Positions 33 through 10,653 of a DNA stretch of 64,000 nt are shown here, one piece after another. A program made the position numbers and the translations under genes. Each line of letters opens with the position of its first letter. The first letter of the stretch is position 1. The DNA comes from Terriglobia bacterium (GTDB taxonomy: Bacteria > Acidobacteriota > UBA6911): assembly GCA_963824985.1 (NCBI GenBank), contig CAWGRQ010000013.1:10630-74629 (forward strand). Direction: 5' to 3'. The notes below the pieces were generated by a model. That model saw only the letters and a program-made list of their open reading frames with translations, was not told the origin of the DNA and made no database searches.

Positions 33-2510
33 ATGTCCGAAGATCGTTTGGAAAAGGCCGTGGAAGCGATGAAGAGCGAGAATGCCAGTCCCGAGCAGCT
101 GGCCGGGGCGCGGGCGAGGGTCTGGGCGAACCTGGGAAATGCCGGCGCAGCGGCTTGCGCCGAGTTCCGGACCGGATTCCCGGAATATCTGGATGGGCGG
201 CTGGCGGGGAACCGGCGGCTGCTGATGGAAGACCACCTCAGCCGTTGCGTTCCCTGCCGCACTCAGCTTGCCGCCCTGAAGGGCGGCGCCACCGTTGTCG
301 CCATGCCGGACCGCCGGGTATCCTCCTGGCCGCAGTGGCGGACTTGGGCGATAGCCGCGGCATTGCTGGTCGCTGCCCTTTACCTCGGGCGCGACCGCCT
401 CGACACGCTGATGGCGCCGCAAGGCCCGCGCGCTACGGTCGCTTCTGTCGAGGGTGGGTTTTACGGAGTCGTCGAAGGGGTCATTCAAAACGGCGCGACC
501 ATCAGGGAGGGGCAGGTAGTGCGTACCGGCCCCGGCGCACGTGCCGTATTGCGCCTTGCCGATGGGTCGGTGATCGATGTCAATGAACGTTCCGAACTTT
601 TTGTGAGGGCCGCCTGGAGCGGTCAGACGGTTTACCTGCAGCGCGGCGACATCATCGTTCGGGCAGCTAAGCAGCGCCGCGGCCACCTGCGCGTCGAGAC
701 GCGCGATTCGGTCGCATCGGTTCGGGGGACCGTGTTTGCGGTTTCGTCCGGGATGGGCGGAACCCTGGTCTCCGTCGTGGAGGGTTCCGTGGCCGTCAGT
801 CAGCCGGGGGGGGATGTCGTATTAAGCCCCGGCGAACAGGCCGCCTCAAATCCGGCGCTGACAAATTCCGTGCAGGATGCTGTGTCGTGGAGTCCGGACG
901 CCGAATCCTACACCGCACTCCTGGGGTCGCTGGCCAAGATTGACAAGCAGATGGCCGCCTTGCCGATTCCGGCCCTGCGCACCCAAAGTCGCCTGCTCTC
1001 CATGCTTCCCGTGAATGCCCTGGTGTACGGCGCGGTTCCCAACCTCGACGGGATCATCGGCGAGACCGTGGGGCTGGTGGAACAGCAGTCGGCTGAAAAT
1101 CCCGTCTTCCGCTCCTGGTGGAGTTCCAGTGCCGGACAGGAGCTGAGGCTGGTGCTCGACCGGATCCAGACGGTGACCCCGCTGCTGGGTGACGAGATCA
1201 TCTTTACGATCTCGGCGGGTGCTCCGGGAACGAGTGAGGAGTTCCCCATGGTGCTCGCGGAAATACAGCCGGGCAAGAGCGCCGAGCTGGCAAAGGCTCT
1301 GGACGCGTTGGCCGCACAAACGGGGAACGCCTCTCTCCCCTATTCACTCACCGATACCCTGATGGTCATCTCCAACTCATCGGCGAACCTGCGGCGGGCC
1401 ATCGGGTACATGGGCCAGGGAGCCGCAAGCCCATTTGCCGCGGCCATCGCCTCCCGCTACCAGCGGGGGGTCGGCTGGCTGCTCGGCATGGACCTGGAAC
1501 AGCGGTTTGCCCAGGCTAGCGGCGCCGCCGGGTTCCAGTTGACGGGTGCGCAGCAGATGAAGCATCTCTTTCTCGAGCAGCGCACGCTCCAGGGCATCGA
1601 GCAGAATGAGGTCACGCTCACCTTTCAGGGGCCGCGCACGGGTATAGCCTCGTGGCTCGCGAACTCCGGTTCAGGCGGCGCCGCCGAGTACATTTCCAGC
1701 GACGCCGTGATCGCGGGTTATGTGGCTACGCGCGAGCCGCGTCAGTTGTTCGAGGAACTCGCGGCGCAGCTGGCGAAAGTGGCGCCCTCCGCTACCGGAG
1801 AACTCGGCGCGGCGGAGACCAGGCTTGGGACCGGATTTATTCAAAACCTGGTCGCCTCGTTCGGCACCGAGTCGGCATTTGCGCTGGAAGGCATCTCGGT
1901 GACCGGCCCGGTCTGGGTGCTGACCTGCCTCGTGAACGACGCTCCAACTCTCGAAGGCTCGATCCGCAAGCTGGTGGACCTGGGCAATGCTGAATTGGCC
2001 AAGGTAGATCCCTCCCGACAGATTACGCTCACGCAGGAGACGGTCGACGGGCGCACCTGGACCACAATGAAATCGGGGACGTTTCCGCTTTCGGTTACCT
2101 GGACGTTCGACCGTGGCTACCTGGTGGCTGCGTCCGACCGGGGTACGGCTGCGCGCGCCATCGCCACGCGTAACGGCGGTTCCCCACTCGTCTGGTCCTC
2201 AGCTTTTCAGCAGCAGCTGCCGGCTGCCGCCGGGCTGCATCCCGCGGCGTTCGTCTGGCTGAACACCAAGGGGGCTTTCGAAGGATTGGCGGCGTTGCTG
2301 CCGAACCCCGCTCTAAAGCAACTGATCGGGGAGCGCGACCCGGTTCTGGTGGCTTTGGATGGAACTGTTGAACAAATTCATGCCGCCAGTCGTATTCGAT
2401 TATCGGGATTGCTTGTGGACGTGATGTTGCTGGAAAGCCTGAGCCGGGTGCGCTCAGGCCCTATAAACCCACTCTTCTCTCAGGGAAGCGTGCAGCCTGG
2501 AATACGCTGA
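33..2510 (+). CDS. anti-sigma factor (zf-HC2 N-terminus, one TM helix, FecR-like segment, large extracytoplasmic C-terminal region)
   Basis: 825-aa ORF. AGGAGG at 21-26 lies 6 nt before the ATG. H-x3-C-x2-C motif HLSRCVPCRTQL, hydrophobic helix WAIAAALLVAALYLG, FecR-like VRTGPGARAVLRLADGSVIDVNERSELFV. Confidence 0.8.
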   Translation: MSEDRLEKAVEAMKSENASPEQLAGARARVWANLGNAGAAACAEFRTGFPEYLDGRLAGNRRLLMEDHLSRCVPCRTQLAALKGGATVVAMPDRRVSSWPQWRTWAIAAALLVAALYLGRDRLDTLMAPQGPRATVASVEGGFYGVVEGVIQNGATIREGQVVRTGPGARAVLRLADGSVIDVNERSELFVRAAWSGQTVYLQRGDIIVRAAKQRRGHLRVETRDSVASVRGTVFAVSSGMGGTLVSVVEGSVAVSQPGGDVVLSPGEQAASNPALTNSVQDAVSWSPDAESYTALLGSLAKIDKQMAALPIPALRTQSRLLSMLPVNALVYGAVPNLDGIIGETVGLVEQQSAENPVFRSWWSSSAGQELRLVLDRIQTVTPLLGDEIIFTISAGAPGTSEEFPMVLAEIQPGKSAELAKALDALAAQTGNASLPYSLTDTLMVISNSSANLRRAIGYMGQGAASPFAAAIASRYQRGVGWLLGMDLEQRFAQASGAAGFQLTGAQQMKHLFLEQRTLQGIEQNEVTLTFQGPRTGIASWLANSGSGGAAEYISSDAVIAGYVATREPRQLFEELAAQLAKVAPSATGELGAAETRLGTGFIQNLVASFGTESAFALEGISVTGPVWVLTCLVNDAPTLEGSIRKLVDLGNAELAKVDPSRQITLTQETVDGRTWTTMKSGTFPLSVTWTFDRGYLVAASDRGTAARAIATRNGGSPLVWSSAFQQQLPAAAGLHPAAFVWLNTKGAFEGLAALLPNPALKQLIGERDPVLVALDGTVEQIHAASRIRLSGLLVDVMLLESLSRVRSGPINPLFSQGSVQPGIR

Positions 2511-3615: not shown

Positions 3616-4476
3616 ATGGCGGTTTACAGGCGCGGATATCACCGGTATCAGGGGCCGATCACGGGACCTGGAACGAGGTTCATGGTGTTGCCCCGCTTTG
3701 CCTGGCGCCGGCTGTTCCAGCAGCGCCTGGTCACCTCGCTCATGGTGGTTTCCATCGCCTGGCCCCTGCTGTGCGCGATCTTCATTTACCTCAGCAACCA
3801 TGCTGAGCTGCTAATGGGGCTGAGTCGCGAGTTCCGGAGTTTTCTCGAGGTGAACGGCAGGTTCTTCCTGGTTTTCATGAATGTTCAGGCGGTGTTCGCA
3901 GTTTTTCTTGCCGCGCTCATCGGCCCCGGACTGATTGCTCCCGACCTGTCCAACAACGCCCTGCCGCTTTATTTCAGCCGTCCGCTTACCCGGACCGGTT
4001 ACGCGGTGGCGCGCCTGATAGTCCTGTTCGGGATGATCTCCTTGATTACCTGGGTTCCGGGATTGATCCTTTTCGGCATGCAGGTCGGCATGGCGGGTGG
4101 CGGGTGGTTTTGGGCGAACTGGACGATCAGCCTGGGCATCTTCCTCGGTTTTACCATTTGGGCGCTGCTGGTTAGCATGGTGGCGCTGGCGAGCTCCGCG
4201 TACGTCAAGTGGAGGATCGTGGCCGGCGGACTGGTGCTGGCTTTCTTTTTCATCCTGAGCGGCGTGTCGGTGATGATCAACGGGGTCTTCCGCGTGACCT
4301 GGGGGCATGCGTTGAACCCGGGATGGGCTGCGTATCGGGTATGGTGCGCGTTGCTCGGCATTGATCCGCCCGCGGGTCCCGGGGTGATGGCATGCGCTCT
4401 GGTGCTGGCGGCACTCCTGCTGCTGCTGGCGCTGGTGCTGGAGCGAAAATTGCGCCCGGTGGAGGTGGTTTCATGA
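3616..4476 (+). CDS. polytopic membrane protein, probable ABC-2-type permease partner
   Basis: 286-aa ORF with about 6 hydrophobic segments. Its stop overlaps the start of the next ATPase gene (ATGA at 4473-4476). Confidence 0.6.
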   Translation: MAVYRRGYHRYQGPITGPGTRFMVLPRFAWRRLFQQRLVTSLMVVSIAWPLLCAIFIYLSNHAELLMGLSREFRSFLEVNGRFFLVFMNVQAVFAVFLAALIGPGLIAPDLSNNALPLYFSRPLTRTGYAVARLIVLFGMISLITWVPGLILFGMQVGMAGGGWFWANWTISLGIFLGFTIWALLVSMVALASSAYVKWRIVAGGLVLAFFFILSGVSVMINGVFRVTWGHALNPGWAAYRVWCALLGIDPPAGPGVMACALVLAALLLLLALVLERKLRPVEVVS

Positions 4477-7063: not shown

Positions 7064-7444
7064 ATGCAGAAGGCGTTTGATGCTGCTCTGCAGATTGCGG
7101 TACGGTTCGAGGTCGATCTCCACATGGTCAGCGTTGAGGAATACCTGCCGCGGTTTGCCCAGACCGTCGAAGAGGTCAGGGGAGAAAAGGAAATAGCGGA
7201 CGACTACTTCGAGCCCCTCGCCGAACAGTGCCGGCGTCGCGCTGCCCTCAAGGGCAAGACGCTCCATACCGACATCATCGTCGGCCACGGGGTGAAAGCC
7301 ATCGTCGAATTCGTCCGTCAAGGCGGTTACAACCTTCTCGTGGTCGGCTTCACGGGACACTCAAGGATCTATGACCACATCTGGGGAGGGACTTCCCAAA
7401 ACATCACCCGTTTCGCACCCTGCGCCGTGCTGGTCGTCAAATAG
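7064..7444 (+). CDS. universal stress protein (UspA family), apparently lacking the first beta-strand
   Basis: 126-aa ORF ending LLVVGFTGHSRIYDHIWGGTSQNITRFAPCAVLVVK (USP C-terminal ATP-binding motif). An in-frame TAG sits 2 codons upstream of the ATG, so the usual N-terminal ILVavDgS segment is absent. Confidence 0.65.
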   Translation: MQKAFDAALQIAVRFEVDLHMVSVEEYLPRFAQTVEEVRGEKEIADDYFEPLAEQCRRRAALKGKTLHTDIIVGHGVKAIVEFVRQGGYNLLVVGFTGHSRIYDHIWGGTSQNITRFAPCAVLVVK

Positions 7445-7506
7445 AATCCTCGGCCGGACGTACAGGGGAGAGGAGAAGTGGCGGCAGCGTCAAACGTCAG
7501 CCGGCG

Positions 7507-7794
7507 TAATTGTTTAGCCAAATCAAATGGATGAAGAAGCAAAACGCAAAGACGCAAAGACGCAAGGGCGCAAAGATCGACTGAGCAACGGGCGTGGGCG
7601 CAGCGCTTCGCGCTGGCGCATCCTTGGGCGAGCCGCGGGAGAAAGCGCGGGCAGCGGCTACTCAGGAGGATTGCGCTTTCTCCCGCGGCTCGCCCAAGGA
7701 TGCGGCCGAAGGCCGCCCATGCCCGCGAACCGAAAGGAATCTCTTTGCGTCCTTGCGTCTTAGCGTTCTGCTGTTCAGCATCGGCTAAACAGAT
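7507..7794. repeat. MITE-like nested palindromic element (family B, CGCAAAG-repeat arms)
   Basis: Terminal inverted TGTTTAGCC (7511-7519) and GGCTAAACA (7783-7791). Arms are tandem ACGCAAAG-like units (7541-7577) against CTTTGCGT-like units (7738-7770). Perfect 31-bp inner inverted repeat at 7618-7648 / 7673-7703. Flanked by an 11-bp direct repeat GTCAGCCGGCG (7496-7506 and 7795-7805). Confidence 0.8.
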
Positions 7795-7795
7795 G

Positions 7796-8503
7796 TCAGC
7801 CGGCGCGTCCCGCATTCCTCAGCACCGACGCCATCTTGTCAGCGATTTCTTTCGGCAGGCCGCTTGCATGCAGGCGCGCGACGGCACTCTCGACATCGTA
7901 CCGAGTGCGTTTCAATGTGACCTCGCCGTTCTGCCAGATCGCCAGGCAGGCGCGCGGATCGCCATCCACCGGCATACCCAGGCTGCCGGGATTTACCACC
8001 ATGAGCCGGCCGACTCGCCGGACGAACGGCTTGTGCCTGTGACCCAGGAAAAGCCACTCCTCTTTTTCGGCTAACGCACCTACTGCTTCAAGCTATTCCG
8101 ACTCCGGGGCGTCGCCGCACAGGTACTCATAGGTTGGATCGCGCGGCGTCGCATGCACGAGATGGAATCGCGTTCCCGATTCTTCAATTGTGAGCGCGCT
8201 AGGCAGTGATCCGAGGTAGGTCATGGCTTCGGCGCTCAATCGCGGCCGGAAATGCTCTCGGGTGGCAACAGAAAGCGCGTAGGAAATCGGTGAGCTGCGG
8301 CAATTCGCCCCCGTTGCCATAGCCAGATCATGATTGCCGCTGACGGCAATTGCACCCAGTCCTTGCACCTGACGGACAACCTCTTCAGGCGCCGCGCCGT
8401 AATCGACCAGGTCCCCCAGGACGAGCAACCCGTCATAGGGCTCATCGATTGATTCAAAGGCGTCGGTATTGGCGTGAATATCGGTGAGGATCAAGTAACG
8501 CAT
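7796..8503 (-). pseudogene. calcineurin-like metallophosphoesterase (YfcE/MJ0936-like) interrupted by an in-frame TAG
   Basis: The ORFs 8093-8503 (MRYLILTDIHAN...LGDLVDYG...SGNHD) and 7796-8002 (MVVNPGSLGMPVDGDPRA...) are in the same frame. The 30 codons between them read LEAVGALAEKEEWLFLGHRHKPFVRRVGRL (GHxH motif). The only break is a TAG at 8093-8095. Confidence 0.8.
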
Positions 8504-9255: not shown

Positions 9256-9291
9256 CAAAAAACCCCGCCCGGGAATCCCCTGGGCGGGGTT
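9256..9291 (-). terminator. intrinsic terminator (expression platform of the riboswitch)
   Basis: Minus strand AACCCCGCCC-AGGGGAUUCCC-GGGCGGGGUU followed by UUUUUU. 10-bp GC-rich stem, about 50 nt upstream of the ATG at 9204. Confidence 0.7.
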
Positions 9292-9335
9292 CTTATGGAT
9301 CCATGCTTTAACTCCTACCCAGGCCTTTTCTCGAG

Positions 9336-9384
9336 GTAGGAGTTATCAGGCCAGATACGGCCGGTTATGGCGAACTCCATCGCC
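9336..9384 (-). promoter_or_regulatory. fluoride riboswitch aptamer (crcB RNA motif)
   Basis: Minus strand GGCGAUGGAGUUCGCCAUAACCGGCCGUAUCUGGCCUGAUAACUCCUAC. It has a P1 GGCGA/UCGCC, an AUAAC linker, a short hairpin GGCC-GUAUCU-GGCC, and a pseudoknot GGAG...CUCC followed by terminal CCUAC. It is near-identical in layout to fluoride aptamers as I recall them. Confidence 0.75.
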
Positions 9385-9390
9385 AGCACA

Positions 9391-9419
9391 ATCCTACCAA
9401 TGCTTGAATTCGGAAACAA
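9391..9419 (-). promoter_or_regulatory. candidate sigma70-type promoter for the riboswitch leader
   Basis: Minus strand TTGTTT, 17 nt spacer, TAGGAT. The -10 ends 6 nt before the first G of the aptamer. Weak match to consensus. Confidence 0.3.
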
Positions 9420-9524
9420 GCCACTTCCGCCCGCAAGATCCGGTGAACGATGGCGTTCTCCGCGATGATCTGTGGCAGACTCTTTCGGCCGAGCTGTAAC
9501 CGGCGCGGGACTTCCAAAAAAAAC

Positions 9525-9556
9525 GCCACGGATCACAGATTGCACAGATTCAAAAA
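9525..9556. repeat. degenerate fragment of the CCACGGAT-type repeat (family A)
   Basis: GCCACGGATCACAGATTGCACAGATTCAAAAAG: tandem CACAGATT x2 followed by CAAAAAG, resembling the left arm of the 14.4-kb and 40.1-kb elements. Confidence 0.3.
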
Positions 9557-9904
9557 GCCTGGCAGTTTCTTGAAGATCTGTATCCGAGACAAATGCGCGG
9601 GTATGGAGAGATGGATCCGGCGGCGGGAGGGGATCTTACCTGGGTGCTTCAGGAGGTCCGGAGGCTAGCGGAGCCCGGGAGAAACGCCTCTCCCGGATCC
9701 AGGCCGAACCTGCACTCGCTCGCCAGCTCGAGCGATTGTCTCAGATCATTGCGCGTCACGGACTGGTCGAGTACCTTCCCGCCTTGGATTCGATAATTCG
9801 AAAGCTCGAATCTCATCGTTTCGAGATAGCGGTCTTCGGTCGGCTCGCGGACGGGTGGGGAGGCGGGGCGGAGCTGAGTTCACCATCGATCGGGTCCATG
9901 GCCC

Positions 9905-10130
9905 ATGCTCTACGGCAGAGAGAGGGATATCCGGAATCTGGTAGCAAACTTGCGGCACGGAGTGCACACCCTCGTCTTCGGCGCACCAGGCTCCGGTAAG
10001 AGCGCCCTGCTCCAGGAATCTGCCCGTCTTCTCTCCTCGAATCAAGCATCAGAACGGCTCGTCGCTTACGTGGGGGACTGCGGCTCCCGCAAGGTCTTAC
10101 TCAGAATCTTCTTAATCAGAAATAGCGCGG
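9905..10130 (+). pseudogene. N-terminal fragment of a P-loop (AAA-type) ATPase, truncated
   Basis: YGRERDIRNLVANLRHGVHTLVFGAPGSGKSALLQESARLL (Walker A). The frame then runs into the 3' end of the convergent, clearly coding 10150-10653 gene and loses protein-like character. Confidence 0.4.
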
Positions 10131-10149
10131 ATTGGTTCGCGCCCCATTC

Positions 10150-10653
10150 TCATTTCTTCACTGCGAAGGAAAAGTGCTGCTGTGCCATGACCCATCGGCC
10201 GCCCCGTTTCTCGAGAACGCCCGACCAGCGGGTGTCTTCCCAGTTCGCCGGCTGGCCCTTCCATTCATTGATGTCGTCCAGGAGGCAGAAGAACCAGGCT
10301 ACGTCCCCGGATCTGGAGATCTTGATTTTGAGGTCCCGTAGTTCGTACCGGACGGCCTTGAAATCAGGGCTGCTCCAGATAGTCTCCGCCTTTTTGAATT
10401 CCTCGAAACCCCTGACGACCGCGCCGTCAGGGTGCACCTCGAGAAAGTCCGGATCGTTGGCGATCACGCCGTACAGGAGCCGGAAGTCCTTGGTTTTGGC
10501 CCAGCCGATGCAATCCCGGATCGACTGTTCAATCTGCTTCAGTTCGTCGCCGCCGGACCTGTATGAGTTGCCGGCCGGGCCCCATGCGGCGAAGAAAAGG
10601 AGCGTCATGGCTATACCGAGACAGATAACTATGATGGAAATAGGCCTTTTCAT
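10150..10653 (-). CDS. SnoaL-like/DUF4440-type (NTF2-fold) protein with N-terminal signal/anchor
   Basis: 167-aa ORF. N-terminal MKRPISIIVICLGIAMTLLFFAA. Body ...IEQSIRDCIGWAKTKDFRLLYGVIANDPDFL...DVAWFFCLLDDINEWKGQPANWEDTRWSGVLEKRGGRWVMAQQHFS, typical of the NTF2-like fold. Confidence 0.7.
   Translation of the reverse strand: MKRPISIIVICLGIAMTLLFFAAWGPAGNSYRSGGDELKQIEQSIRDCIGWAKTKDFRLLYGVIANDPDFLEVHPDGAVVRGFEEFKKAETIWSSPDFKAVRYELRDLKIKISRSGDVAWFFCLLDDINEWKGQPANWEDTRWSGVLEKRGGRWVMAQQHFSFAVKK

Follow-up and report, generated by a model that had tools for sequence, protein, structure and literature searches.

The minus strand of the 64-kb stretch of DNA analysed here (the window) encodes a genuine fluoride riboswitch, ordinary as a riboswitch, which lies in the native leader of a conserved operon for a dynamin-family GTPase and an enolase, sometimes joined by an MFS transporter and a YfcE-like metallophosphoesterase. 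This operon has decayed in the window, so that an apparently intact switch now controls gene remnants only. We hold the joint reading, comprising the identity of the riboswitch, the nature of its ancestral operon and the decay of that operon, with considerable confidence. With less assurance, we lean slightly towards a broader proposal: that dynamin-like GTPases of ~556 aa, often paired with a second dynamin-like gene (552-688 aa) and usually sharing a transcript with enolase, are an undescribed core member of the fluoride-riboswitch regulon, and that the window holds a degenerate copy of their operon in which the switch has outlasted the genes.

A search of the window against the 4227 families of Rfam 15 (cmscan) returned RF01734 (Fluoride, crcB motif) as its sole match, at 9393..9330 on the minus strand. 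The match covers model positions 1-64 in full, untruncated, and at 49.8 bits, where the family has a gathering score of 34 (E = 8.2e-11), it is far beyond chance. The original prediction had called a fluoride aptamer here and had proposed this very check, an RF01734 score above the gathering score on the minus strand; the call is supported by the outcome, and the 49 nt that it quoted read exactly GGCGATGGAGTTCGCCATAACCGGCCGTATCTGGCCTGATAACTCCTAC from 9384 to 9336 on the minus strand. All the elements that it listed are present, namely P1 (GGCG/CGCC, 9384-9381 / 9372-9369) and the variable P3 hairpin (GGCC/GGCC, 9362-9359 / 9352-9349), both formed by standard pairs in the cmscan alignment, together with the GGAG/CUCC pseudoknot, the joiner and the terminal CCUAC. 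The pseudoknot lies outside the Rfam RF01734 model and was judged by the complementarity of its strands, which read GGAGUU (9378-9373) and AACUCC (9344-9339). Alongside both helices, the aptamer has the conserved joiners (GAUGG..., AACC, CUGAU, ...UAC), and the upper-case consensus bases of RF01734 are all matched save one, a G that is replaced by A at 9344. Every feature of RF01734 membership that is open to sequence analysis is found in this RNA, which is predicted to bind fluoride selectively, as a Mg2+-F- cluster, and to change its structure in response. The absence of a credible ORF over 9260-9560 was likewise borne out: no Pfam match was found for the three ORFs that overlap this interval (76, 54 and 108 aa), nor for two more upstream. 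A scan of viral contigs for the aptamer gave 0 matches.

The substitution at 9344 had been singled out as the one position that differs from known examples (GAUAAC). The difference is real, since A stands here in place of the G of the consensus GAUGAC, but it is not unusual. GAUAAC is a frequent natural variant: the pattern GATGGAGTTCGCC...GATAACTCCTAC occurs in at least 120 stretches of GTDB species genomes, a lower bound from a search for exact occurrences in a set with one genome for each GTDB species. Among the matches listed, its carriers are mainly Acidobacteriota (Terriglobales), and some are Nitrospirota, Planctomycetota, Bacteroidota or Methanoperedens. The position equivalent to 9344 is one that we take to be paired in the crystal structure of the fluoride riboswitch. 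We compared this position with the last base of the loop in 18 distinct aptamers from dynamin-linked loci, which had been gathered without regard to the base at the 9344-equivalent. The two bases are U/A in 11 aptamers, U/G in six and C/G in one, and an unpairable combination occurs in none of the 18. This pattern fits a sixth pseudoknot pair, in which A would replace a wobble G and thereby turn U.G into U-A.

The leader as a whole is predicted to fold with -70.3 kcal/mol (z = -5.65 against shuffles), and nine leaders of the same architecture were compared (those of the window, L102, L121, L123, L124, L126, L127, L128 and L130). Upstream of the aptamer, a promoter-like site can be read from the sequence (9419-9391), with -35 TTGTTT (9419-9414), a 17-nt spacer and -10 TAGGAT (9396-9391), the latter ending 6 nt upstream of the aptamer GGCGA; the pattern TTGnnn-17/18-TAnnAT stands at the same position in seven intact orthologous leaders. 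At the other end of the aptamer, the minimum-free-energy fold contains a hairpin of 12 bp (9345-9309; hairpin 1), a candidate anti-antiterminator that joins UAACUCCUACCU (9345-9334, the 3' strand of the aptamer) with GGGUAGGAGUUA (9320-9309) at -15.0 kcal/mol. Since hairpin 1 uses the 3' strand of the aptamer, it competes with the pseudoknot. Its pairing is kept in all nine leaders, with a single exchange of C-G for U-A in L130, and it has no U-tract. About 18 nt further on, the same fold forms an intrinsic terminator (9291-9257), AACCCCGCCC-A-GGG-GAUU-CCC-GGGCGGGGUU, whose 10-bp outer stem and 3-bp inner stem (-26.1 kcal/mol) are followed directly by U6, giving the G+C-rich hairpin and U-tract of a Rho-independent terminator. 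The position and sequence of this terminator are conserved in the other eight leaders. A scan for consensus promoters and terminators listed neither the promoter-like site nor the terminator and was too strict for both: the promoter-like site matches only 7 of 12 consensus bases, and the terminator was probably missed because of its bulged stem, with 11 nt enclosed by the outer stem and no more than three pairs in the inner one.

A third pairing in the leader is a candidate antiterminator (9323-9279), in which CCUGGGU.GG (9323-9314) would pair with CC.GCCCAGG (9288-9279), a C-rich partner that lies within the 5' arm of the terminator. The window duplex has a predicted energy of -17.5 kcal/mol, and 1.2% of composition-matched shuffles are as good (RNAduplex). 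Comparable duplexes can be drawn in all nine leaders (-15.4 to -23.6 kcal/mol, with shuffle fractions of 0.004-0.063), although these tests are not independent because the leaders are related. For a nascent transcript with a locked aptamer that does not yet include the 3' arm of the terminator, the antiterminator is the predicted fold in three of six leaders, including that of the window. L128 is the sole leader with an improved helix, its single mismatch having become an A-U pair to give 11 contiguous pairs. Clean compensatory changes in the antiterminator were found in none of the nine leaders, and its register shifts from one leader to another.

The ancestry of the operon is apparent from related loci. 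In L121, L123, L124, L126, L127, L128 and L130, the same aptamer, hairpin and terminator immediately precede the gene for an intact Dynamin_N protein, the intact GTPase being ~556 aa long with a Pfam match to Dynamin_N. Among 15 non-redundant related loci for which upstream DNA was included, 14 have the dynamin-family gene preceded by an RF01734 match at a distance of 15-175 nt, and this holds down to 41-45% protein identity; the exception is L138, where the gene lies within a CLC / DUF190 operon. Enolase follows the GTPase in L123, L124, L126, L127, L129, L130/131, the P0081 locus, L135/136 and L139. A YfcE-like metallophosphoesterase is found downstream in L124, after the enolase, and in L127, where an MFS transporter also lies downstream of the GTPase-enolase pair. 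Moreover, L127, L128/129 and L130/131 carry a second, divergently transcribed dynamin-family gene (552-688 aa) with a fluoride riboswitch of its own. The orthologous leaders precede GTPase-enolase operons in islands with DUF190, an Na+/H+ exchanger, Usp, CrcB or CLC, and DUF190, Na+/H+ exchanger, Usp and CrcB genes are classical members of the fluoride regulon (PMC11139923; PMC5533749). It is through these orthologous leaders that the leader in the window can be assigned to fluoride-toxicity genes, the window itself holding remnants only.

The first gene behind the leader in the window, identified by tblastn and by alignment to intact proteins, is a 237-aa ORF on the minus strand (9204-8491). 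It has no Pfam or NCBIfam match, and its homologues include longer Dynamin_N proteins. In tblastn comparisons with the intact proteins of L123 and L124, GTPase residues 272-481 match 9147-8518 with 65% identity (E 1e-80), and residues 1-29 match weakly at 9207-9121. Residues ~30-271, which comprise the entire GTPase domain, have been removed by an in-frame deletion with its junction at ~9121, and the last ~76 residues are absent beyond a second deletion junction at ~8518, with RRRSACVT* in their place; neither the missing N-terminal nor the missing C-terminal part was found elsewhere in the window. A Dynamin_N domain with a P-loop (PF00350) is not present in this ORF, and since the GTPase domain is absent we regard it as a remnant and not as a functional member of the dynamin family. 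The whole enolase gene has been deleted. The YfcE-like metallophosphoesterase gene (8503-7796, minus strand), recognised by its Pfam Metallophos match and its L124 orthologue, is interrupted by an in-frame TAG (8095-8093) that stands for the Trp of ESEW in the L124 protein (TGG to TAG). The Metallophos match covers the first 136 aa and the frame runs on past the TAG; the L124 phosphoesterase aligns over its full length with 8506-7799, collinear and 69% identical, and the domain is otherwise recognisable. No crcB follows the riboswitch, and within the 64 kb of the window no homologue of enolase, crcB, CLC, the Na+/H+ exchanger or DUF190 was found. A related collapse can be seen in L102, a long-read metagenome assembly from Acidobacteriota, where the same leader precedes ~65 N-terminal GTPase residues fused to the middle of the phosphoesterase. 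This is a second, independent collapse of the same operon, brought about by a different deletion.

Since every downstream gene is damaged, the switch may have no current function. It is conceivable, though in our view doubtful, that the riboswitch is simply left over, being neither under selection nor useful any longer even if it still folds. All three formerly controlled genes are deleted, truncated or interrupted, the operon of L102 collapsed independently, and the window is devoid of the crcB, CLC, enolase, Na+/H+ exchanger and DUF190 homologues named above, all of which speaks for such a leftover. The condition of the RNA argues against it: the aptamer scores 49.8 bits where those in orthologous leaders before intact operons score 45-55, the promoter-like site, hairpin 1 and the terminator appear undamaged, and the remnant ORFs contain no frameshifts. 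Because this possibility concerns the present usefulness of the switch and not its identity or mechanism, it overlaps with the explanation that we favour, a genuine riboswitch at the head of a decayed GTPase-enolase operon.

A single contig is the source of both the deletions and the TAG, and its genome, judged by its only database record and its closest relatives, is probably metagenome-assembled; these lesions could reflect strain mixtures or assembly error. Misassembly or strain mixing might then have joined the leader to truncated genes while the real operon is intact, an explanation that we consider improbable. In its favour, the exact 237-aa product has one occurrence among 15 billion sequences, on one contig of 85.9 kb that is presumably metagenomic in origin, and the breakpoints lie near gene ends. 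However, the first deletion is in frame and preserves both the true N-terminus and the leader, the phosphoesterase is collinear save for one base, and in an independent long-read assembly (L102, on a 646 kb contig) the operon has collapsed in an analogous but different way.

As for how the leader works, a fluoride-ON transcriptional switch is most likely. Transcription would probably start from the sigma-70-like promoter at 9419-9391. Without fluoride, the 3' strand of the aptamer, AACUCCUACC, would pair with the downstream GGGUAGGAGUU to form hairpin 1 (9345-9309), and the strong terminator (9291-9257) would end transcription. With fluoride, the pseudoknot would hold the 3' strand of the aptamer, and the freed G-rich strand could pair with the newly made C-rich 5' arm of the terminator, allowing RNA polymerase to read through. 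Such a relay, with its third, antiterminating pairing, is needed because the helix that overlaps the aptamer is not the terminator. The sequence comparisons show the identity of the aptamer, the presence and conservation of the hairpin and terminator, and the place of the leader at the head of a conserved operon, whereas the promoter, the pairing of the antiterminator and the ON logic are what we infer; in the antiterminator relay taken alone, which draws on nascent-transcript folds and duplex energies, our confidence is moderate. An attempt to prove the antiterminator thermodynamically failed, as the terminator forms in equilibrium folds whether the aptamer is locked or not, and the antiterminator would consequently have to act kinetically. 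The fluoride riboswitches are a class of ON switches, often with a terminator overlapping the motif (PMC2864571), and in Enterobacter cloacae a fluoride riboswitch mediates a 176-fold induction of enolase, a target of fluoride (PMC5533749; reviewed in PMC11139923). The ON logic agrees with this published behaviour.

Ribosome-mediated antitermination, in which fluoride would free an AGGAG in hairpin 1, the 3-codon ORF AUG GAU CCA UAA (MDP*, 9304-9293) would be translated and a ribosome stalled at its stop codon would cover the 5' arm of the terminator to permit read-through, is highly improbable and was rejected: the AGGAG lies 7 nt before the AUG, the UAA ends 1 nt before the terminator stem, and many Acidobacterial fluoride riboswitches that share this CUCCUAC / GUAGGAG hairpin clearly control crcB at the level of translation, but the other eight leaders (L102, L121, L123, L124, L126, L127, L128 and L130) conserve no short ORF and lack the AUG, and in them the G strand reads GGGUAGGGC instead of AGGAG with no start codon after it. 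The 3-codon ORF, being absent from those leaders, is not counted among the functional parts and is probably fortuitous. A perfect 10-nt palindrome, ATGGATCCAT (9295-9304), overlaps this non-conserved ORF between hairpin 1 and the terminator and contains a BamHI site.

With the proposed relay, the expression platform would be of a standard three-helix design, and the riboswitch can be compared with several known systems. P1, P3, the conserved joiners and the pseudoknot that links the P1 loop to the 3' ACUCC are common to the window and the transcriptional crcB type of Bacillus cereus (RF01734). The logic expected of the class fits as well, in that a competing downstream helix uses the 3' strand of the pseudoknot and an intrinsic terminator would give the ON response (PMC2864571). 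In the classical type, exemplified by Nitrospirota sequences (CUCCUAC...GUAGGAGUUUUUU), the competing helix is the terminator, whereas the competing hairpin in the window has no U-tract and a separate terminator follows ~18 nt on; the operon controlled is that of a dynamin-like GTPase and not crcB. Acidobacterial translational crcB riboswitches, which occur in the phylum of L102, the closest named relative, have the same GAUAAC and the same CUCCUAC / GUAGGAG hairpin right after the aptamer. There, GUAGGAG is the Shine-Dalgarno sequence of crcB, with a GTG or TTG start within ~10 nt and no terminator, while in the window a terminator and another operon come after the hairpin. The fluoride-resistance operon of E. 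cloacae FRM (riboswitch, ppaC-uspA-eno-gpmA-crcB; PMC5533749) offers a further parallel, since its riboswitch drives extra copies of enzymes sensitive to fluoride, enolase among them, and a universal stress protein is encoded nearby, and the islands of L123, L127 and L135 similarly hold enolase, Usp, an Na+/H+ exchanger and DUF190. However, the E. cloacae operon has no dynamin-family GTPase, and in the window it is the enolase that is gone.

On the protein side, the GTPase domain of the intact orthologue matches by sequence Campylobacter jejuni DLP1/DLP2 (PDB 5OWV, E 1.6e-12), Mycobacterium IniA (6J72, E 1.1e-09) and Nostoc BDLP (2J68, E 2.7e-08). Like DLP1 and DLP2, the dynamin-family genes often come in pairs (L127, L128 and L130). 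The window copy differs from these bacterial dynamin-like proteins in being a remnant without a GTPase domain.

In the literature, full-text searches returned no paper that joins "fluoride riboswitch" with "dynamin", or fluoride and riboswitch with "dynamin-like"; papers joining crcB and dynamin were unrelated, and no described link of DLP1/DLP2, IniA or BDLP to fluoride was found. A 2024 review of the fluoride regulon never mentions a GTPase (PMC11139923), and reviews of this regulon list exporters, Na+/H+ antiporters, pyrophosphatase, HAD phosphatases, enolase and formate hydrogen lyase, with no GTPase among them. Provisionally, judged by these full-text searches and by PMC11139923 and PMC2864571, the association of the riboswitch with dynamins is new to the searchable literature. 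The physiological roles of bacterial dynamins are, to our knowledge, still poorly understood. By tying a dynamin-family GTPase to fluoride stress, the intact relatives suggest a specific inducing signal, which would make the role of bacterial dynamins testable; if dynamins do belong to the fluoride regulon, fluoride stress would be a defined and inducible condition under which to study them. The riboswitch itself adds nothing new to its class, and Rfam finds it at once. The locus as a whole provides a clear case of an RNA switch outlasting its operon, which makes it a useful example when the loss or re-use of regulatory RNAs is considered.

Several further features were observed at the related loci. 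In L123 (1297-3908), L127 (1333-3910), L130 (3589-9495) and L132 (3913-6540), three separate RF01734 riboswitches lie within a few kb of one another in fluoride islands. The units that they head differ and comprise a dynamin-like gene, DUF190-Na+/H+ exchanger-Usp, GTPase-enolase, CrcB-DUF190 and an NB-ARC/AAA_22 gene. Riboswitches of the nhaA-I class (RF03057, 50-52 bits) occur near fluoride-riboswitch loci in L102 (1524-1578) and L134 (7118-7171), the latter directly upstream of an Na_H_antiport_1 gene. In L124, a group II intron domain (RF00029, 40.4 bits, at the cut-off) was found on the minus strand at 4215-4289, just 3' of the intact phosphoesterase gene. In L137, a tRNA-Sec gene (1009-1100, plus strand; 70.6 bits) adjoins a phage-type integrase upstream of the riboswitch-controlled dynamin-family gene, an arrangement which suggests that the dynamin unit lies on an integrated element; L134 also has an integrase just upstream.

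The surroundings of the riboswitch in the window contain other elements and remnants. A universal-stress-protein gene on the plus strand (7064-7444) converges on the decayed operon. Its Pfam match to Usp begins at profile position 16, so that the first beta-strand is apparently missing, and the gap between this gene and the ABC-2 permease gene upstream is only 37 nt. The protein is only 24% identical to the Usp of intact fluoride islands. On the other side of the riboswitch, the plus strand at 9905-10150 encodes the N-terminal 82 aa of a STAND / AAA_16-type ATPase, P-loop included, a fragment whose frame then enters a SnoaL-like gene on the opposite strand (10150-10653); the fragment looks like a further gene remnant. 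Between the Usp gene and the end of the phosphoesterase gene lies a palindromic element of ~300 bp (7491-7805). It contains a perfect 32-nt inverted repeat (7617-7648 / 7673-7704) nested in imperfect inverted repeats of 20-28 nt made of GCAAAGAC-like units. A 16-nt direct repeat, CA(A/G)A(C/T)GTCAGCCGGCG, marks both of its ends (7491-7506 and 7790-7805). In this organisation, the element looks like a miniature inverted-repeat mobile element (MITE).
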